Source: a phage | Assembly: GCA_025276375.1 (NCBI GenBank) | Contig: GCA_025276375.1_3645.2 | Reading direction: 5' to 3' (one strand) | Length of the DNA: 27,989 nt | Part shown: piece after piece, positions 1 to 9,142 of the stretch | Numbering within the stretch: the stretch's first letter is position 1 | Layout: the number at the start of each line of letters is the position of its first letter | Program-made: the position numbers and the translations under genes | The notes under the pieces: model-generated | What the model was told of the DNA's origin: nothing | Seen by the model: the letters and a program-made list of their open reading frames with translations, nothing else | Database searches by the model: none

Positions 1-517
1 AAATATCTCTGATATGAAACCTACCCTTTGGGGATTGAGTTATTATCTTCATAGTATCCCCTGCGGCAATAGGTTTTCTAAGTCTTGGAGATATGCTTAT
101 AACAGCAGACCCAACACCATCGCTACGTACTGGAGCTGTTACCACTTTCAACTCATCATTGACAGATATTTTATCCCCAGCTCTAGCTATGTCTCTGTTT
201 GGCTCCCACCCAACCGTCTTCAAAAAATCGTCGTTACCAGTAGGCCCAAGGGCGATTGGCTCATTAGCTGTAACTGAGTGACCGTAAGTTTTAATGAGAA
301 AGATGTTCCCATCTTTATACACCTGATCAACAAAGCTCTTAAGCTCTAGCAACTGTGATTCGCTGATATTGGAAACCGTCAAAGTGCCTTTCCAGTTAGG
401 TGTGGCATAGGTTACTTTTTGCGTTTTACCTGTAAACGGACTTTTAAACGTAACAATATCTGCCAGCAGCTCCAATCTAATATCTGGAAGGTATCTAGGC
501 CTTTCCCATAAAAACAT
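1..517 (-). CDS. hypothetical protein, N-terminal part (gene runs off the window start)
   Basis: ATG at 517-515 preceded by GGAGG (plus 522-526 cctcc). Hand translation is open to position 1 with no stop (MFLWERPRYLPDIRLELLADIVTFKSPFTGKT...). Absent from the ORF track because no stop lies in the window. Sits downstream of the terminator that follows the large fibre gene. Confidence 0.5.
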   Translation of the reverse strand, partial: MFLWERPRYLPDIRLELLADIVTFKSPFTGKTQKVTYATPNWKGTLTVSNISESQLLELKSFVDQVYKDGNIFLIKTYGHSVTANEPIALGPTGNDDFLKTVGWEPNRDIARAGDKISVNDELKVVTAPVRSDGVGSAVISISPRLRKPIAAGDTMKIITQSPKGRFHIRDI

Positions 518-548
518 TGTGCCTCCAGGTTAAACAATCATGATAGTT

Positions 549-577
549 ATTTTACCAGATTTTAAGTTAATACGCAA
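549..577 (-). promoter_or_regulatory. possible sigma70-like promoter (TTGCGT-N17-TAAAAT) for the gene starting at 517
   Basis: Minus-strand TTGCGT (577-572) and TAAAAT (554-549) with 17-nt spacer. The -35 is a weak match and overlaps the U-tract of the upstream terminator. Confidence 0.25.
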
Positions 578-608
578 TACAAACAAAAAGCCCCCGCCGA
601 AGCGAGGG
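575..608 (-). terminator. intrinsic terminator after the large fibre gene
   Basis: Minus-strand RNA GCCCUCGC-UUCG-GCGGGGGC (8-bp stem with one G.U pair, UUCG loop) followed by UUUUUGUUUGUAUU, directly after the stop at 617-619. Confidence 0.6.
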
Positions 609-616
609 CAAAACAG

Positions 617-3600
617 TTACTTCAGTTTCTCTTGCAATCCAGTAACAACCTCTGTCAATTTTTTAACCTGCTCCTCAAGGGCGGTTATTTTATCGTCCTG
701 TTCCCTGCAAACCTGGACAAGCAAGCCTGTTACAGCTGCGTAGTCAACGTTATAGAACCTTTCCTCGGTCATCAGAGGAATACCGTCTTGAGTAGGACCT
801 TCTATTTCCTTCCTTTTCACGAAAGATCCTACTGCCTCTGGCAATGCTTCCATAACCTCTTGAGCAATCACGCCTGCATAAGGCATACCATTCTCTTTCA
901 AGGTGTAGGTATAGCCTTTCATCTTTCTAATTGCTTCCAGAGCGTTAGGTATGACCTCTATATTATCCTTCAGGTCTCTATCGGAACTTTGGCTAACAGT
1001 GGTACATACTACCGTGCCGTTGACAGCAAAATATCTTGATTTAGCCTCATCTGCCTTAGCTCCGCAGTGGAATACCCAGCTGCCGGCTGTTGAGTTATCA
1101 CTTATCTGAAACTCAAGCACATTCTTCCTATCAGCGCCATTACCCCAATAGTACAACCTGCCTGTATTAGAAGGCATGTTCGAAGTGTTGGTAACATCAG
1201 CACCACCACCTGTATGTATTGTGAACTCAGGTTCAAGATTGGACCCTTGAGTTTTTAAAGTGATACCCTTACCGCCAAGCTGCTGCCAATGGCCCCATGT
1301 GAAAACACCACCTATCGTTGTTCCATAACGCAGGAATTTTTCTCCAAGATATGTTGTATATTCCTGTACGCAACTCTCTGGAACGTTGGCATAGTTTCTA
1401 TAGACAAGGAGAGTACCTGCCTGAGAGCATGGGTAGTTTCTATCAAGTGCGGCTTGAGCATTGGCCTCCTGATGATAAAAACCCTCTCTATCTCCTTTGT
1501 AGTCGTTAAGGTCATTAGTTCCCAACCCTTGACCACGGTGCTGAATAACTTTGTTCCACGCTCTGTGGTTTCCCTGCTCTATGGAACGAGTGTACAACTG
1601 GTCTAAACGACCTGCCATCTGGAAAGCGTAGTTTCCAGAAAATGCCACAGACAACCCGCCAACAACCATTGAACCTTCAGGTCCGTTGACGTTGCCAGCC
1701 AGTATTTTGGATGGGTTGTTAGGCCCAAACTGGTTGTTCCAGTCTGCACCAGTGTGGCATACAAAACCACCAGGGGCTGAAAAAGTACCATCCTTATTGA
1801 AGTTGTAGAATCTATGAGCTGTGCCTACAATATCACGAACAATAACTTGACCAGCCTCTGGGGTGGATCTGAACTCTGCCTGTCCTTGCAGTCTTGCCCC
1901 ATTGCCGCATTTAGAGGTAAAGGTATTGTTGATCAGATCCTCTGTTCCTTCCGATGCAGCCTGGAACCCTGCGTTAGAGAACAATGCTTTTCGAGTGGTT
2001 TGGCTACCCGGACAAATGTAGTTAAGACCGTTGTACCACATCTCTACAGGAGGCATCTCTGTCTTACTCATCAGAACCATTCTATCAGGCGTGCCTATAT
2101 AGTGCCAGCCTGCACCACCACCCGTATAGAACCCTGATGTTCCCTTGAACTCAGCAAGAGGCCTGGTGTTTGTTACATCATCACCTTTAATTGCAAGACT
2201 TAAATTATCTGACGCAAGAGGGGCGCAAAACTTGACACCATCTTGGTTGTTAGTTACATTTCCTACCTGCCAGTCATTTTCTCTGGTAAATACCTCAAGA
2301 ACGTTTCTGCTTGCGTAGACACTGACAGGGAAAGCACGCGCCTCAACATAGAATGCAACATACTCCTGCTTCCCTCTAGTTGGAGCTATACACCCAAGAA
2401 TTGCTTTCTCGTTTTGGTAGAAATTAATAACCCCTTGGAAAGAATCCCCTCTGTCTGTCCAACCACCAGTTCTATAGTGACACTGTAAGGTCGCACAGTT
2501 CATAGGGTCACCACCAGATGACGACCTAGTAACTATGGTAATATCGGTGCCAATAGTTGGAGCACAATACGGATCTGTTCTAACGATGATTGGGTAGTAT
2601 TTCCCATCTTCCATCCCTGCAGTTCTTGGCAGTGTTAAGAAATCTTTGACACCAGCAGCTATAGGAACTTTGAACAGATTCTGAGCATCTGCCAGGGTTG
2701 TAGCCCCTGTACCACCTGCGGCTTGCGGTAAAGGTTCCCACTTGGCCTTCCGGTTGTTATAAACACCCCATTCCAAAGTGCCGTTACCGGATTCGTCCAT
2801 TCCACCATCCCAGACAACCATCTTGGCGGCTTTCTTGGATCCCCAGAAGCCTCTTTCTGCTCCTGAACTACGAATCCATTCTCCAAGTCCCCAGTTTGTC
2901 AACTGACCAGTAAGATCCCCAACCTGCATATATTTAGGGCAGTCTAATACGCCGTCTTCGCGGAAACCTAAATATCTATGGGTTTCAGATCCTTTTGCAC
3001 CTTTATGGAGGTGGATTGTCAACCAAGCCTTATTGTCGTTTCTTACCTCAGAATAGATCCTATACCCATGCTCAAGAACACCATCAGTATTATATTTATC
3101 TCCATGGAGAATACCTGAGGCCGACTTAACATCTCCAGAGTATTGAGCTAAGTAAAGGTGCCCGAAGGCTGGCGAGTTGTTTTTACCAAGGCCGATATGA
3201 GATCTGAAGGTATCATCGTTACGAGGTCTGACCATCGGCTGCCATGCAGTCCACTGATTTGTGTTGGCCTGATAGGTTCTCAAATACCAAACATCTACGT
3301 TAGAGAATGGATAGTATTCCTGACGACAACCTGTACCGCCGTTAGCGTTGTTCTGCCAAACAATCAAGTGACCAGCACCAGAACCTGCAGGGTAACCATT
3401 TGCCTCAGTTGCATAAGCAGTCATTGGCTGGTAGTATACACCATCCTGATTACCAGTCAAGTTATTGATATTGAAATTTGGCTCAAGGGCTGCACGTTGC
3501 TTATAGAAAGCACCGATATTGATACGGATTCCAGCGGCATCTCTAGCCCCTGTGCCGCCCTGCTCTATAGCAAGAGGCTGCCAAGAAGCTGTTTGTTGGT

Positions 3601-4423
3601 TCCACATACCCCAACGGCCTGTTGCATCAAGCTGCAAGTACCCTGCTGTGTTTAAATCATCTCCAGCACGAATAACTGTTCTTGTTGGGTTGTTTGCCTC
3701 TAGGCGTTTAAATTCATCACGAAGTGCTATTCTTTTTGTTGTTGCTACACCGTTGGTTACTGCAATGGTATACATTGCTCCGGAGGTAGCACCACGGAAA
3801 ATACCATCAACAGTTGTAGTATCACGACGAGATACCACACCGTTCAGAAATTTTTCACCAGCTGCTACAGAAGGGTAGTTGGTAGTTCTTCCCTCTTCAA
3901 TAACTGCAGGGCCAACAAAGTTATCAAGGTGAATAACATCGCCTACAGTGTGCACTGTACCAAAATCTACACGCTGTGCAAGTGCTTTGGCATCGTTAGC
4001 TGTCTGAACAGTAACATCCATTACATCCTGGACAGACTGCCCTTCGGCTGTCATGATCATGGATGCGCCAATGGTAGATTCCAGCTCCTCCCTTAAGGAC
4101 GGGTCAGTATATACCATCCATGCAGCGTCAGTAATCCCGCCATCGGAGTACGGTGAAGATAGTGCAGGAACAGTGTGCGGAAATTCGCCTTTCCAACGCA
4201 GGTAGAGGTCTTCCTCTTCGAAGTAGGCAAAATCCATTGGGCCGTTTAACTTACCACCTTCCTTAAAGGAGATTACATGAGAAACAGTCCCATCAACATG
4301 GACAACATCGCCAATTTTTACACGACGGGTCAGGTCTGGTTGTTGAACAACCAGGTAATCATCCTCTGTCACTGCGGTAGTGGCAGGAAGAGATTCAATT
4401 CTGACAACTTTAATATCAGCCAT
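617..4423 (-). CDS. tail fibre / tailspike protein (1268 aa) with N-terminal virion-attachment domain and C-terminal S74-type intramolecular chaperone domain
   Basis: N-terminal ~105 aa share motifs with the 222-aa protein at 7058-7726 (LVVQQPDLTRRVKIGDVV vs LVVNQTDGTRKAKIDDVV; FKEGGKL...DFAY vs FTEGGYL...DFAY). C-terminal ~120 aa (SDRDLKDNIEVIPNALEAIRKMKGYTYTLKENG...) match the autoproteolytic chaperone domain of endosialidase and T5 L-shaped fibre type proteins. SD GGAGA upstream of the ATG at 4423. Confidence 0.8.
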   Translation of the reverse strand: MADIKVVRIESLPATTAVTEDDYLVVQQPDLTRRVKIGDVVHVDGTVSHVISFKEGGKLNGPMDFAYFEEEDLYLRWKGEFPHTVPALSSPYSDGGITDAAWMVYTDPSLREELESTIGASMIMTAEGQSVQDVMDVTVQTANDAKALAQRVDFGTVHTVGDVIHLDNFVGPAVIEEGRTTNYPSVAAGEKFLNGVVSRRDTTTVDGIFRGATSGAMYTIAVTNGVATTKRIALRDEFKRLEANNPTRTVIRAGDDLNTAGYLQLDATGRWGMWNQQTASWQPLAIEQGGTGARDAAGIRINIGAFYKQRAALEPNFNINNLTGNQDGVYYQPMTAYATEANGYPAGSGAGHLIVWQNNANGGTGCRQEYYPFSNVDVWYLRTYQANTNQWTAWQPMVRPRNDDTFRSHIGLGKNNSPAFGHLYLAQYSGDVKSASGILHGDKYNTDGVLEHGYRIYSEVRNDNKAWLTIHLHKGAKGSETHRYLGFREDGVLDCPKYMQVGDLTGQLTNWGLGEWIRSSGAERGFWGSKKAAKMVVWDGGMDESGNGTLEWGVYNNRKAKWEPLPQAAGGTGATTLADAQNLFKVPIAAGVKDFLTLPRTAGMEDGKYYPIIVRTDPYCAPTIGTDITIVTRSSSGGDPMNCATLQCHYRTGGWTDRGDSFQGVINFYQNEKAILGCIAPTRGKQEYVAFYVEARAFPVSVYASRNVLEVFTRENDWQVGNVTNNQDGVKFCAPLASDNLSLAIKGDDVTNTRPLAEFKGTSGFYTGGGAGWHYIGTPDRMVLMSKTEMPPVEMWYNGLNYICPGSQTTRKALFSNAGFQAASEGTEDLINNTFTSKCGNGARLQGQAEFRSTPEAGQVIVRDIVGTAHRFYNFNKDGTFSAPGGFVCHTGADWNNQFGPNNPSKILAGNVNGPEGSMVVGGLSVAFSGNYAFQMAGRLDQLYTRSIEQGNHRAWNKVIQHRGQGLGTNDLNDYKGDREGFYHQEANAQAALDRNYPCSQAGTLLVYRNYANVPESCVQEYTTYLGEKFLRYGTTIGGVFTWGHWQQLGGKGITLKTQGSNLEPEFTIHTGGGADVTNTSNMPSNTGRLYYWGNGADRKNVLEFQISDNSTAGSWVFHCGAKADEAKSRYFAVNGTVVCTTVSQSSDRDLKDNIEVIPNALEAIRKMKGYTYTLKENGMPYAGVIAQEVMEALPEAVGSFVKRKEIEGPTQDGIPLMTEERFYNVDYAAVTGLLVQVCREQDDKITALEEQVKKLTEVVTGLQEKLK
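620..985 (-). other. C-terminal intramolecular chaperone (peptidase S74-like) domain of the fibre, predicted to be self-cleaved near the Ser of SDRDLKDNIE
   Basis: Last 122 residues of the 1268-aa protein begin with the conserved S-D-x-x-L-K-x-N-I-E motif, followed by a hydrophobic/coiled-coil tail. Confidence 0.6.
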
Positions 4424-4437
4424 TCTTTCTCCTGAAA

Positions 4438-4454
4438 GGGGGCAAACAGCCCCC
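4438..4454 (-). other. perfect GC hairpin between the two fibre genes (attenuator or RNA-processing site; weak terminator)
   Basis: Minus-strand GGGGGC-UGUUU-GCCCCC followed by only UUUC, then the SD and start of the 1268-aa gene. Confidence 0.3.
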
Positions 4455-4458
4455 TATG

Positions 4459-7056
4459 TTAAAGGTACAATCCACGGTATTGAGCATAAAGGCCCAGACC
4501 GCGAAGGATTTCGCCAGAGTGATAGCCAACCGGATCAGAAACTGCCCAGCAGCCGTTTAAAATATTATCCCCATTAATGAAGTGGTGCTTTTGCAGTAGC
4601 TTCACACAGGCTTCCACAACAATATCTATTTGAGGTATTGTCTCTGAATACCCGCACAGACCTAGCCAGCAGCAACCTGCAAGCCATTCACCTACCACCC
4701 ACATCCTGTCTCCTCTGTCTTGATAAGAATATCCCCCAGAGGTGTTAAAGTCTGTGGGCAGATTTCCTGAATGAGATGACTGGAATCTGTTGAGGAACCA
4801 TGCCCATTTCTGGCAGAACAGGAATAGTCTTTCATCAACAGGTTCTTTATGTTTCTTGAGCTCATATATTGTGCGGCACGCAGCAACAAAAGATCTTGAC
4901 TGGAGTTTAGAGTTATCTACCATCTCCCACCAACCAGTCAGCCCTTCATTACCTCTCTGCCATACATAACGCGAGGCAACTGGACCCTCTGTCTTAAATG
5001 TATTATTATACCAGACTTGAGCGTCATACAGAAAGCCTATTGTATTTGACAATCTATGGCGATCTATGTTTTCTGCACCCATGCAGTAGACTGCTGGATA
5101 TTGCATGCCAGGGTAGGGCCAATTTGGCTTTTCCTCTAAGAGATAGTTTTCCTTATCTATCACCTTTCCGGCAGGGAACACACCAGGAGTGTGCCTGTAT
5201 GCACCTTGCTTGTAGTTTCTGACATAGCAATCACCAACCTTAGCGGTTGATTCTGTCTTGCTTGCCATCCATACGCTAAACCAGATTAGATAAGCATCCC
5301 TATCCGCGATATAAAATTGCGGCAGTGTGTTGACGCAATACAGATCAAACAATCCATTACCTATCTGCCTGTCGCTTAGGCTGAAATCTACAGAGGTGAG
5401 CCCCTTAGGATTAGCAAAGAAAGGTTTAATCTCTTCTTCGGTGTGATGAGGTTGTGTTGGATCTAGTTTGAAATCTCCTAGAGTAAGAGTTTCTGTTATC
5501 CATTGTCCATTAGTGGCATATAGATCAGCATACCATAACCACTTGTCTTTGTCAAGAAATTTGACCCTTACCATCTCATCATCTGATCGATAAGTTACTG
5601 AGTTTAAAGAAATCTCTCTTCCAAAATTGAAAGTTACTTTGCCTCTTGCTATATTACAACGGGTGAAGTTGTCAGAGTGGTTGTAAATGTCGGTATCGTA
5701 CTGCATACTAACACTGGCACCACCGCTCACGGCAATGTTTTCCTCTCTAGGTAAGAGGTACGGATTACCGTCTTTACCAACTACCTCTACGAAATCAGTA
5801 ACCTTGGCAACTATTCCTGTTACCTCTGCACCTCCAAAAGGGACACCTATCCTGTACTGTTTTTTGTTATTGTTGCCATCATTAAGGATGAAATGTGGCT
5901 GGAACAGAACCCCCTCCCCTCCGAAATTCATAACAATTTCAGCATCTCTGCCTATTTTGTATGTAGTCCCTTTTTGAATTATTTCGCAAGGCTGGCGTGC
6001 GTTCATTCTAAAATTGATATACCCGTCACTATCCCTGCTCATGACAGGAACTGTTCCTGCAACAAGACAAGCACCATCTGTAAATGGTGCCTTAATCAAT
6101 GTGGTCTTTCTAAACAGTTTGTCGTAGGCGTTTATATCACTGAAATTAAGCAACTTGTTGTAAGACTGTTTAAACGCGGTGTAGTACTTTTCCTCACCTG
6201 TCAAGGTGTAGAGTTGATAACAAGCGTCACACCACATTTCTTCCCCGTCCAACTCTGGGGCTTGATTGTCTGCAATCACGTTTATAGGATTCACAATTAC
6301 AGGGGATCCAGCAGGGATCACCGAGCCACCCTGCTCTTGAGGTAATCTTACACAATAGGTCACCTTGTGGCTTCCTGTAACACCCTTATCTTGTAATTGG
6401 ATTGTGCCGAACTCTACAGACGTATGACCACTGTCGGCTATGCTACCGTTAGCCCAATAGCGGTTACCATCCCATGCTATATACCACTCAACCCACCAAC
6501 TTAATCCGGATGTTGTCCAATCTGGGTTAGCATCTGTGCCACCGTAAACATCGGAGTCTACCGTGTTTCTTCCTAACACACCGTTATACGCTTGGAATGC
6601 CTTGTCCAGGTATTCTCCCCATGTCGGAGATCCAGCTGGGATTTTTCCTCTACCATTGGTAAAAGACACCACCACATCTTTAAACCCACCATGTGATGGA
6701 ACCCCATCTGTAGATAGAGGGTAGTGGGACAATCTTTGCATTTTACTTTCTACTGCATATGCACCCAGAAGATGACTATTGTAAGCTTCCCAAGCATCTT
6801 TTGCCCTATCCAGATAGAAATCGCTTTTCGATGCCCTGTATGCTTCAATGTATCCCAGAATCAACACAGCTTGGGACTCATGCATTGCCCAATCATTATT
6901 TATCTTATTACCTGCCCACCCTGCAGCTATAAGACCATCAGGGTTTACTAGCTTATTTTGTGTAGGGGTGTTGGTAATACCTGTGTTGTTATCGAGGCAC
7001 TTCCTGTGCCCCTCAATCATCTGAAATACGTTATCAATGTTATGTTGAATACGCAT
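4459..7056 (-). CDS. second receptor-binding protein / putative enzymatic tailspike (865 aa) lacking the shared N-terminal attachment domain
   Basis: Large ORF immediately downstream of the 222-aa attachment-domain protein, with start ATG 7056-7054 one nt after that gene's stop (7060-7058). Trp-rich segments at both termini. No attachment motif. Function inferred from context and size. Confidence 0.55.
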   Translation of the reverse strand: MRIQHNIDNVFQMIEGHRKCLDNNTGITNTPTQNKLVNPDGLIAAGWAGNKINNDWAMHESQAVLILGYIEAYRASKSDFYLDRAKDAWEAYNSHLLGAYAVESKMQRLSHYPLSTDGVPSHGGFKDVVVSFTNGRGKIPAGSPTWGEYLDKAFQAYNGVLGRNTVDSDVYGGTDANPDWTTSGLSWWVEWYIAWDGNRYWANGSIADSGHTSVEFGTIQLQDKGVTGSHKVTYCVRLPQEQGGSVIPAGSPVIVNPINVIADNQAPELDGEEMWCDACYQLYTLTGEEKYYTAFKQSYNKLLNFSDINAYDKLFRKTTLIKAPFTDGACLVAGTVPVMSRDSDGYINFRMNARQPCEIIQKGTTYKIGRDAEIVMNFGGEGVLFQPHFILNDGNNNKKQYRIGVPFGGAEVTGIVAKVTDFVEVVGKDGNPYLLPREENIAVSGGASVSMQYDTDIYNHSDNFTRCNIARGKVTFNFGREISLNSVTYRSDDEMVRVKFLDKDKWLWYADLYATNGQWITETLTLGDFKLDPTQPHHTEEEIKPFFANPKGLTSVDFSLSDRQIGNGLFDLYCVNTLPQFYIADRDAYLIWFSVWMASKTESTAKVGDCYVRNYKQGAYRHTPGVFPAGKVIDKENYLLEEKPNWPYPGMQYPAVYCMGAENIDRHRLSNTIGFLYDAQVWYNNTFKTEGPVASRYVWQRGNEGLTGWWEMVDNSKLQSRSFVAACRTIYELKKHKEPVDERLFLFCQKWAWFLNRFQSSHSGNLPTDFNTSGGYSYQDRGDRMWVVGEWLAGCCWLGLCGYSETIPQIDIVVEACVKLLQKHHFINGDNILNGCWAVSDPVGYHSGEILRGLGLYAQYRGLYL

Positions 7057-7057
7057 C

Positions 7058-7726
7058 TTAGATAGCTCCTGCGATAATCAGTGCCCCGTACCAAGTTAAC
7101 CCGTTGTCGTAGGTTTCCAACTTGAAAATGTCTGTTGCACCAGCTGTAAATGTTAGGATAGGATCTCTTCCGTAGGACCATTTAACATTACCGGGCCAAT
7201 AGACTTTGTTGCCGCCAGAGGTCTGAGTAATGCATACGGTTATAGTTCTCGCCACCCCTTCAAGACCTTCTGTTTGATTTTCAAAAGAGATTGTGGTATT
7301 TGAAGTTAGTCGAACCTTAAAGGTATCCGCAACTTCAAGATCCATATCAAGCTGACCACCGATAGATCCGTAATCAACTATTCTGCCAGAAGAAGTTGCA
7401 GCAAGCTCACCAAAAACAGACCAGGCATTTGCAGACACACCCCCAGCACCCTCTACAGTAGAGTCTGGGAGGATTATTTTAGGATAATCCCCGTTCCACG
7501 TGTAGTAGCGCTTAGTTTCTGGATCATAAGCAAAGTCCTTCTTGCTCTTAAGATAACCACCCTCTGTGAAATAGACTATCTTAGTGATGCTAAGATCGTT
7601 GACAACATCGTCAATCTTAGCCTTTCTTGTCCCATCAGTCTGGTTGACAACCAAGAAGTCATCACTCAGGACTGTTTCTGCATCTTCAAGATCTGGAATT
7701 GGTATTGTAGGATAAGCTACAGCCAT
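7058..7726 (-). CDS. tail fibre attachment/adaptor protein (222 aa) sharing the N-terminal domain of the large fibre
   Basis: About 40% identity by eye over ~105 N-terminal residues with the 1268-aa protein. Short C-terminal region. Translationally coupled to the 865-aa gene. Confidence 0.55.
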   Translation of the reverse strand: MAVAYPTIPIPDLEDAETVLSDDFLVVNQTDGTRKAKIDDVVNDLSITKIVYFTEGGYLKSKKDFAYDPETKRYYTWNGDYPKIILPDSTVEGAGGVSANAWSVFGELAATSSGRIVDYGSIGGQLDMDLEVADTFKVRLTSNTTISFENQTEGLEGVARTITVCITQTSGGNKVYWPGNVKWSYGRDPILTFTAGATDIFKLETYDNGLTWYGALIIAGAI

Positions 7727-7735
7727 GATTTCTCC

Positions 7736-8452
7736 TTAGTTAACATCAATAGCACGACCAGACTGGTTGGCAATAGCCTCATCATTGGAGGTAGCAATAA
7801 CACCAGAGTATTCGCGCTCATCTGGAGCAAGCGTCCAGGTATTGCGGTTAATGGTTTGTTCTGCCTCAGTCATGAGCAGATCTTTATCCTGAGTCAACAG
7901 AGAGCCTACAGGGATCGGGTTTTCCATCTCAGGACCAGCATACTGGTTCCACCATGTGGCATCTCCGGTTCTAGGCAATCTGAAGTTGATCAGATAGTAC
8001 AGTTTATTAGCCCACTTAATCCAACCCTCATCATCACAGAGGGAGGTTGTCCCAGAATCAGGCTGTGGGTATGTGAACTGATCAAGACCTACAAAAGCCA
8101 GCCTTACAATCTCGTTCTCTTTGGTAACAACCTCAAAGAACGCTTGGTATGTTCTCGATCTTCGATCCATGGTAGATTGGAAGTTTATGATGTTTAGCAC
8201 ATCCGGCTCTTGTCTTGCCACTTCCATAATCTTGTTATCAAGAACAGTCTTCATGACCTTCTTGCTGAGAAAGTCCATATAAGGGAAGCCAAACAGCTCG
8301 TCAAAGTACCAGCTCCCCTTCCACGTATTAAACCTCATCCACAAGCGCTGGCGCAGACTCACCTGGTTTGAATCTATCAACTCAAGACCTTTGTCTATCG
8401 CCAAATCGCCTGTCTGCGGGTCCATCAATATATCACTATAAAGCGTAGCCAT
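7736..8452 (-). CDS. baseplate protein, possibly gp25/GpW-like wedge component (238 aa)
   Basis: Position between the spike and the fibre genes. N-terminal pattern LRQRLWMRFNTWKGSWYFDELFGFPYMDFL resembles the conserved baseplate wedge signature. Not verified. Confidence 0.35.
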   Translation of the reverse strand: MATLYSDILMDPQTGDLAIDKGLELIDSNQVSLRQRLWMRFNTWKGSWYFDELFGFPYMDFLSKKVMKTVLDNKIMEVARQEPDVLNIINFQSTMDRRSRTYQAFFEVVTKENEIVRLAFVGLDQFTYPQPDSGTTSLCDDEGWIKWANKLYYLINFRLPRTGDATWWNQYAGPEMENPIPVGSLLTQDKDLLMTEAEQTINRNTWTLAPDEREYSGVIATSNDEAIANQSGRAIDVN

Positions 8453-8464
8453 GAAAGCCCTCTA

Positions 8465-9142
8465 TTAGTGCGGTCCACTTGTCTCGCCATCAGGGCAAGA
8501 GTGGGTATGACCTTTATATTCTGCATAGAATGAATCCAAATCCACACCAGCAGCAGTTATAATTCTACCAGATGGGTCTATTGTGGCACCATTCATTCTG
8601 ATATTTCCATCCACAGCAGCTCGCAAATTGGCAGCCCCGTTAGTGAAAGAAAACTCCCCGCTGCTGTCGCACCGTAATGTCCCACCAGGTGTTTGAAGCT
8701 CAAAATCGCCAGAAGGTGTCAGTTTAAAATAAACCCTATCATTCCATAACTCTACGTTATCAGGATCGATCTGTAAAGCGTTTGAGTCTGAATGGACAGA
8801 GGTGATTGCCCACCCTGGAAACAGGCCGTGAGTTTGTTGATCGTCGTTATTGTTTTCATTTCTCTCTGAAAACTGTAATCCTACAACATCTCCAGCCTTA
8901 ATAGGAAGTGTTAACCTTGCCTTTCCGCTGTTTGCAGACATCACCTGAATTGGAACGTCATAGATAAGAGGGTATCTCTCCACATCTCCGTCATCAAACG
9001 TGGTTTCAGCTATTGGCTGCACAGATGCAGAAGGGATACTGTAGTCTACACTGACAACTCTGGCCCTGATACTGGTGTGGTAGTCCCTCATTATTTTTTC
9101 TATGAAGGATCTTACAGCAGCATCTTTCCTATTTATTGCCAT
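8465..9142 (-). CDS. baseplate central spike protein (gpV/gp5-like, 225 aa) with C-terminal His-rich apex
   Basis: C-terminus ...EYKGHTHSCPDGETSGPH carries an HxH-type metal-binding tip motif as in P2 gpV-type spikes. Size and position next to the hub-sized gene. Start overlaps the upstream stop (TAATG). Confidence 0.55.
   Translation of the reverse strand: MAINRKDAAVRSFIEKIMRDYHTSIRARVVSVDYSIPSASVQPIAETTFDDGDVERYPLIYDVPIQVMSANSGKARLTLPIKAGDVVGLQFSERNENNNDDQQTHGLFPGWAITSVHSDSNALQIDPDNVELWNDRVYFKLTPSGDFELQTPGGTLRCDSSGEFSFTNGAANLRAAVDGNIRMNGATIDPSGRIITAAGVDLDSFYAEYKGHTHSCPDGETSGPH

Follow-up and report, generated by a model that had tools for sequence, protein, structure and literature searches.

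How is a large tail protein held on the virion when it has no attachment domain of its own? The question is raised by three neighbouring genes in a 27,989-nucleotide (nt) stretch of phage DNA (NCBI GenBank assembly GCA_025276375.1, contig GCA_025276375.1_3645.2), the whole of which is referred to here as the window. The window is the tail module of a Vequintavirus (rV5-like) phage of E. coli. All of its long open reading frames (ORFs) are read from the minus strand; together they make up a structural module of myovirus type that runs from the capsid to sheath, tube, tape measure and hub and then to the fibres. A first-pass annotation, made from the letters alone, had described here a short adaptor, a large receptor-binding protein (RBP) without an attachment domain and a long fibre. 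Re-reading of the sequence returned the same coordinates, strand and lengths (in amino acids, aa) for the three genes:

7058..7726, minus strand: putative adaptor gene, 222 aa (ORF and translation); orthologue of rV5 gp43 and of Bas58 bas58_0025
4459..7056, minus strand: 865-aa anchor-less tail protein, predicted to be (alpha/alpha)6 glycoside-hydrolase-like; orthologue of rV5 gp42 and of phi92 gp141 (35% identity)
617..4423, minus strand: 1268-aa lateral tail fibre, orthologue of rV5 gp41; it has an anchor region of its own at the N-terminus and an intramolecular chaperone towards the C-terminus

Our analysis suggested that the 222-aa protein is probably a modular adaptor which holds the 865-aa enzyme on the virion, and that the two genes form a portable cassette. 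The orthology to rV5 gp43, gp42 and gp41 was drawn from gene order and lengths. All three rV5 proteins were seen in purified virions by mass spectrometry (PMC3606486), and the presence of gp42 among them bears out the claim that the 865-aa protein is virion-associated. Positions 400-8500 of the window are 95-96% identical in DNA to Vequintavirus genomes (Bas58 HeinrichReichert, rV5 variants, Murica and FV3), with 95.6% for the adaptor-gene region against Bas58. In Bas58, the three genes come after the central spike and a 238-aa baseplate protein, and are labelled "sialidase domain protein" (222 aa), "lateral tail fiber protein with glycosidase domains" (865 aa) and "lateral tail fiber protein" (1266 aa).

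The putative adaptor and enzyme genes as a pair

We examined 18 loci covering Vequintavirus, phi92, Kolesnikvirus, Loughboroughvirus, Seoulvirus, a Vibrio phage, podoviruses, siphovirus-type modules and prophages. In all 18, a protein that ended in a single copy of the adaptor's C-terminal domain (C-domain) was followed directly by an 865-like gene. The paired loci include phi92 (gp140/gp141), Bas60, Kolesnikvirus SeKF_13, podovirus GAP52, Loughboroughvirus ZCSE2, the T7-like Serratia phage Kaonashi, Klebsiella phage KLB24 (lambda-type tail-tip context, unclassified in its record), a 157-kb Vibrio phage, Seoulvirus SPFM21, phage PJNS034, a siphovirus-type tail module (L025) and prophages (Burkholderia and L023). 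The pairing was kept in every annotated phage examined, and local tblastn confirmed the adjacency in each. In every one of the 14 cassettes measured, the distance from adaptor stop to enzyme start lay between -8 and +14 nt. Four of the 18 proteins came from a HMMER search and were chosen solely for a single terminal C-domain; all four were followed by an 865-like gene or, at a contig end, by its N-terminal fragment. Conversely, a small gene stood -1 to +12 nt ahead of each of three distant 865-like genes. The products of these small genes ended in about 110 adaptor-like residues, while their N-terminal parts differed.

The junction of the two genes in the window is arranged as follows:

7054..7070, minus strand: junction of the 222-aa and 865-aa genes as read from the sequence, with AGGAG at 7066-7070, the stop codon TAA at 7058-7060, 1 nt, and the start codon ATG at 7054-7056

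The letters ...ATC TAA G ATG... show that the 865-aa start codon does lie 1 nt past the 222-aa stop codon, as had been noted before. The AGGAG stands 9 nt 5' of this ATG, i.e., the Shine-Dalgarno sequence is inside the 222-aa gene, and the junction reads as an arrangement of the translational-coupling type.

In a tblastn search of 50,697 phage records, 536 matched the 222-aa protein and 525 matched the 865-aa protein. The counts for the two ran in parallel across genera: 244 and 243 in Escherichia, 99 and 101 in Salmonella, 58 and 62 in Vibrio, 12 and 12 in Cronobacter, and 7 and 7 in Aeromonas. A Mantel mirror-tree test of C-domain distances against enzyme distances was weakly positive (r=0.31) and is not relied on here. 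Among the records, about 23-25 GenBank entries named "Campylobacter phage" (MG0656xx, host C. jejuni) are 94-100% identical to the E. coli rV5-like genes; these are probably mislabelled or contaminating coliphage sequences.

The exchanged anchor and the varying fibre

The first-pass annotation had also claimed that the 222-aa protein and the 1268-aa fibre share an N-terminal domain which the 865-aa protein lacks. Pairwise BLASTP agreed on both points. The two proteins are 38% identical over 99 residues (8-105 against 7-105; E=3e-18), and the 865-aa protein gave best E values of only 1.5 and 0.24 against the two others. Both N-termini also match PF18668 Tail_spike_N, at 41 bits for the 222-aa protein and 40.9 bits for the fibre (Pfam gathering cut-off 25). 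By these scores, the similarity is real and far past chance. When the 32-kb tail-fibre locus of Bas58 was searched by tblastn with the shared region, only the orthologues of the 222-aa protein and the fibre matched. The shared region is composite, with an N-terminal motif of about 40 residues followed by a PF18668 beta domain of about 55 residues:

7592..7726, minus strand: N-terminal anchor motif of the adaptor, about 45 residues, I-x-x-L-...-D-x-L-V-x-x-Q-...-T-x-K
7412..7576, minus strand: PF18668 Tail_spike_N (TSP1/Gp66-type) beta domain, adaptor residues 51-105
4109..4405, minus strand: fibre residues 7-105, homologous to the adaptor N-terminus by BLASTP, with PF18668 at residues 46-103
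830..985, minus strand: Peptidase_S74 intramolecular chaperone, fibre residues 1147-1198 (PF13884, 55.5 bits; cut-off 22)

The anchor motif is common to the adaptor, the 1268-aa fibre, phi92 gp140, phi92 gp143 (EndoN92) and the Kolesnikvirus adaptor, and it presumably takes part in attachment. Both in sequence and in fold, the PF18668 beta domain has relatives in the N-terminal domains of CBA120 TSP1/3/4 and G7C gp63.1; the rV5 gp43 N-terminus had earlier been likened to that of the P22 tailspike (PMC3606486).

While the adaptors aligned all end in the C-domain, their N-termini belong to different families. The anchor is PF18668 in the window, PF03906 (the T7 tail-fibre N-domain) in Kaonashi and PF08400 (the prophage/lambda side-fibre N-domain) in KLB24. 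A Burkholderia prophage adaptor starts with SPRY and low-complexity sequence, those of GAP52, ZCSE2 and PJNS034 with coiled coils, and those of phi92, SPFM21 and L003 with the ~40-residue motif alone. In Kaonashi, the pair takes up the place of the gp17 tail fibre, and the late region has no further annotated fibre gene. None of the 865-like proteins examined carries an N-terminal anchor. The idea that an adaptor with the attachment module serves an anchor-less 865-aa partner is thus strongly backed, as far as sequence goes, by a conserved gene pairing with exchanged anchors.

Within Vequintavirus (about 120 records), identity does not fall below 96.4% for the 222-aa protein or 96.6% for the 865-aa protein, while the 1268-aa fibre shows 84-95% identity in most records. 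In a subset of the records, only fibre residues 1-1048 are kept and the last ~220 (about 1049-1268, window ~617-1279) are different, so that the S74-containing C-terminal tip appears to have been replaced by another module. This variation agrees with the BASEL study, in which a few large fibre genes were allelically variable and most of the locus was conserved (PMC8594841). The RBPseg study described a Vequintavirinae fibre class with an S74 or lectin-like C-terminus, fitted at the baseplate wedge, which may be the 1268-aa fibre. Because the adaptor and enzyme are nearly invariant in Vequintavirus while the fibre varies, the anchor, and not the distal gene, appears to be the exchanged part. 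The first-pass annotation had raised the opposite possibility, namely swapped distal genes beside a conserved adaptor. By comparison of sequences, the enzyme and the docking domain are the constant unit, the adaptor anchor is swapped between phage families, and the fibre holds the strain-level variability.

That annotation had further spoken of a dual apparatus with two receptor specificities. The word "dual" falls short, since rV5-like phages carry several further fibres beyond the window (Bas58 annotation; PMC8594841).

The C-domain and the glycosidase-like protein

The part of the adaptor that stays constant and the notable parts of its partner are:

7061..7399, minus strand: conserved C-terminal beta-sandwich domain, adaptor residues ~110-222, proposed docking platform for the 865-aa protein
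6922..7056, minus strand: conserved N-terminal helix and G-H-x-x-F-L-x-R-N-T-G-L-T motif, 865-aa residues 1-45, candidate adaptor-binding element
5218..6072, minus strand: central beta-sandwich insert domains, 865-aa residues ~329-613, from the secondary structure of the model

The AlphaFold2 (AF2) model of the 222-aa protein had a mean predicted local distance difference test (pLDDT) score of 82.5, with more than 90 for the C-terminal domain. The sequence pattern of the C-domain is ...Q-G-x-G-x-N-K-V-x-W-P-x-x-V-K-W-x-x-G-x-x-P-x-L-...-D-x-G-x-T-W-x-G.... It had no sequence match in Pfam, NCBIfam or the PDB, the last of which was searched with a C-domain profile. An exhaustive HMMER search with the 222-aa protein matched 3413 cluster representatives at E<=0.001; most of the best 150 of these cover the C-domain, usually at the extreme C-terminus, and a minority cover the N-terminal region only. 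One protein with three copies of the C-domain is precomputed as PF26209 (Phage_phiTE_241_C); the local Pfam copy gives no such match. Certrevirus phiTE itself (L020 32600-34707; Vequintavirinae) is without the cassette and has a wedge gene directly after the sheath-initiator-like gene. Only phiTE_215 has a weak C-domain-like match there, near its C-terminus.

The first-pass annotation had taken the 865-aa protein for a fibre- or spike-like RBP. The structure prediction, built from 7 sequences with a pLDDT of 70.5, gave a different picture: the chain formed a six-hairpin (alpha/alpha)6 barrel, and a right-handed parallel beta-helix, as in trimeric tailspike depolymerases, was not found in the 865-aa protein. 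According to this model, the protein is predicted to be non-fibrous, globular and (alpha/alpha)6 glycosidase-like. Searches of Pfam, NCBIfam and the PDB gave no sequence match, and no CAZy or Pfam glycoside hydrolase (GH) family could be assigned. The (alpha/alpha)6 hydrolases (GH8, GH48, GH76 and GH88/GH105) and the AGE-type epimerases are only 8-14% identical to the 865-aa protein, whose barrel, unlike theirs, is split by ~500 residues of beta-sandwich inserts. Invariant acidic residues are present in the 865-like family; the protein is a putative enzyme. Three distant homologues on unrelated contigs were found by database search at 26-28% identity, and when 10 aligned members of the enzyme family were used as a profile, the candidates listed again comprised the same six clusters.

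A motif of the GHxxFLxRNTGLT type opens all 14 865-like homologues compared, and residues 2-23 form a helix in the model; this N-terminal element may bind the adaptor. In contrast, the central inserts are the least conserved part of the family, with a per-window conservation of 0.32-0.52 against 0.6-0.74 in the barrel. Within the inserts, residues ~440-579 (window 5320-5737) match a 502-aa tail protein whose own gene lies immediately upstream of Kolesnikvirus-type cassettes (E ~2e-11; counterparts at L004 6700-7140 and L009 3001-3441), as well as phrog_23426.

Model, related systems and transcription of the locus

From these patterns we infer docking, its interface and stoichiometry, and the activity and substrate of the enzyme as follows. 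The N-terminal ~105 residues of the adaptor (anchor motif and TSP1/Gp66-type domain) would fix it to the baseplate or fibre network, probably at a site of the kind used by the 1268-aa fibre, whose N-terminus is homologous. By analogy with its T7-type and coiled-coil versions, the adaptor is presumed to be a trimer. The C-terminal beta-sandwich of ~110 residues would be a dedicated docking domain that captures the 865-aa protein, most likely by contact with the conserved N-terminal helix and motif of the latter. With start and stop so closely coupled, adaptor and enzyme would tend to be synthesised in step. By a change of the adaptor's N-terminal anchor only, the cassette could fit contractile, long non-contractile and short tails. 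The enzyme may bind or cleave a surface glycan during adsorption, and since the cassette is nearly invariant in rV5-like phages, this glycan is probably a conserved one. The 1268-aa fibre, anchored by its homologous N-terminus, would recognise strain-variable receptors.

On the other hand, the 222-aa protein may be a complete, very short receptor-binding fibre with a lectin-like C-domain, the enzyme being held otherwise and the two genes being adjacent through bind-then-cleave cooperation. The main point against the adaptor proposal lies here: tail proteins with two or three tandem C-domains exist without an 865-like neighbour (L017 5001-6353, L022 8-991, L024 1730-4048), which points to a role that is independent of the partner. 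Because of these proteins, the C-domain can have other roles, and a lectin-like function of the 222-aa protein is conceivable. Beta-sandwich folds are also common carbohydrate-binding modules, BASEL calls the 222-aa protein a sialidase domain protein, and the phi92 study handled gp140 as a fibre candidate. We nevertheless consider a short fibre unlikely: the 865-like proteins are anchor-less in every tail type, the small protein bears the sole recognisable tail-attachment domain of the pair in both Kaonashi and KLB24, and mere cooperation does not usually call for genes as tightly joined as these, which are adjacent in 18 of 18 loci and have coupled starts.

The adaptor and enzyme might instead descend from a single fibre gene that split into an adaptor and a distal module open to exchange, as the first-pass annotation had also offered. 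The two genes do run in the same direction 1 nt apart, modular fibres do split and fuse, and 113 additional N-terminal positions in the PHROG profile of the enzyme family are unmatched here and might mean longer members. However, no fused form occurred in the 18 loci or in 6 database clusters, and the distal gene is kept with the adaptor C-domain (at least 96% identity in the genus) while the adaptor N-terminus is swapped, which makes such a split very improbable. We give least credence to the possibility that the 865-aa protein serves in assembly, or as an enzyme that acts at another stage (e.g., a release-stage glycanase), and is loosely or incidentally present on particles. That it is non-fibrous in the model and is assigned no density in published maps would fit such a role, as would the Loughboroughvirus homologue, which could not be classified as spike or fibre (PMC7432712). 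Yet the orthologue was seen in rV5 virions (PMC3606486), the 865-like gene is always in the tail module right after a protein with tail-attachment domains, and in Kaonashi the enzyme takes the place of the sole fibre gene.

It is well known that an anchored protein can carry an anchor-less RBP, as in K1E/K1-5/SP6, G7C, CBA120 and KP32-type phages. In the K1E/K1-5/SP6 podoviruses, a small gp37-type adaptor binds the tail by its N-domain and carries anchor-less enzymes, the genes of which lie downstream. The adaptor plan proposed here is alike, and the Kaonashi cassette even has a T7 gp17-type N-domain. This adaptor and tailspike architecture is summarised in PMC13450770. The window cassette differs from it in having an uncharacterised beta-sandwich docking domain and a single globular (alpha/alpha)6 cargo instead of trimeric beta-helix or beta-propeller spikes, and cassettes of the window type also serve myo- and siphoviruses. 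Among the branched tailspikes, i.e., CBA120 TSP1-4 and G7C gp66/gp63.1, all partners are large trimeric enzymes, and docking is by T4 gp10-like XD domains; the anchor-bearing partner here, in contrast, is a minimal 222-aa protein. In KP32-type Klebsiella phages, which Latka et al. are said to have described in 2019, the first RBP is reportedly anchored and is a full depolymerase, the adjacent second one has no anchor but a conserved short element at its N-terminus, and what is exchanged from phage to phage is the branch. The first protein in the window, however, is without an enzymatic part, and it is the branch that is kept and the anchor that is swapped. The 1268-aa fibre, for its part, has the C-terminal chaperone of endosialidase-type self-cleaving (Peptidase_S74) fibres. 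What appears from sequence to be new in this locus is the minimal adaptor, the uncharacterised docking domain, the globular (alpha/alpha)6 cargo and an anchor swapped across three tail morphotypes.

The closest counterpart is found in phi92 (Justusliebigvirus), where gp140 and gp141 are direct orthologues and where a sheath initiator, a C-domain protein and a large anchor-less protein follow in the same order. The gp140 C-domain is 42% identical to window adaptor residues 109-222, gp141 is 35% identical over its full length, and the gp141 start overlaps the gp140 stop. The two systems differ in that gp140 (157 aa) has the ~40-residue anchor motif only, without the PF18668 domain, and in that its anchor-motif partner is the endosialidase gp143 rather than a long fibre, while the partner in the window is the 1268-aa fibre. 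The motif common to gp140 and gp143 (L007 4239-4712 and 9765-12521) parallels that of the window adaptor and fibre and could be relevant to which proteins make up phi92 fibres I and II. In a 2026 electron cryomicroscopy study of phi92, fibre II was left without assignment and gp141 was not considered; gp141 has been listed as a glycosidase-type tail protein. The literature searched, which did not extend to the original phi92 paper (Schwarzer 2012), held no prior description of gp43/gp42 or gp140/gp141 as an adaptor-enzyme complex.

Tentatively, we suggest the possibility that the C-domain and the (alpha/alpha)6 enzyme are an undescribed, self-contained host-glycan plug-in that is spreading among myo-, sipho- and podoviruses, by exchange of the adaptor anchor alone, and that they make up part of the unassigned fibre density of rV5- and phi92-like baseplates (e.g., phi92 fibre II or the fibre I arm). 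If so, the C-domain would be a new class of enzyme-docking domain without a solved structure. The cassette also points to an uncharacterised, putative docking domain in thousands of protein clusters. The rV5-like and phi92-like phages are common, broad-host-range therapy candidates, and gp43/gp42 (phi92 gp140/gp141) as one adaptor-enzyme unit would give a concrete, testable model for one of their appendages. Since the cassette seems to have been naturally re-plugged onto T7-type, lambda-type and contractile tails via one small N-terminal domain, it might serve as a ready template for engineering phages with an enzyme that processes surface glycans.

Two hairpins were found around the fibre gene:

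4438..4454, minus strand: GC-rich hairpin within the 35 nt that separate the 865-aa gene from the fibre gene, 7-bp stem, about -15 kcal/mol
590..609, minus strand: intrinsic-terminator-like hairpin with a T-run directly 3' of the fibre gene, 8 pairs of which 7 are GC, then TTTTTGTTTG

The hairpin at 4438-4454 was unconvincing as a terminator, with only UUU after the stem and a z score of -1.7 against shuffled sequences, which is not significant. The terminator-like hairpin at 590-609 would place the 222-, 865- and 1268-aa genes at the end of a single transcription unit.

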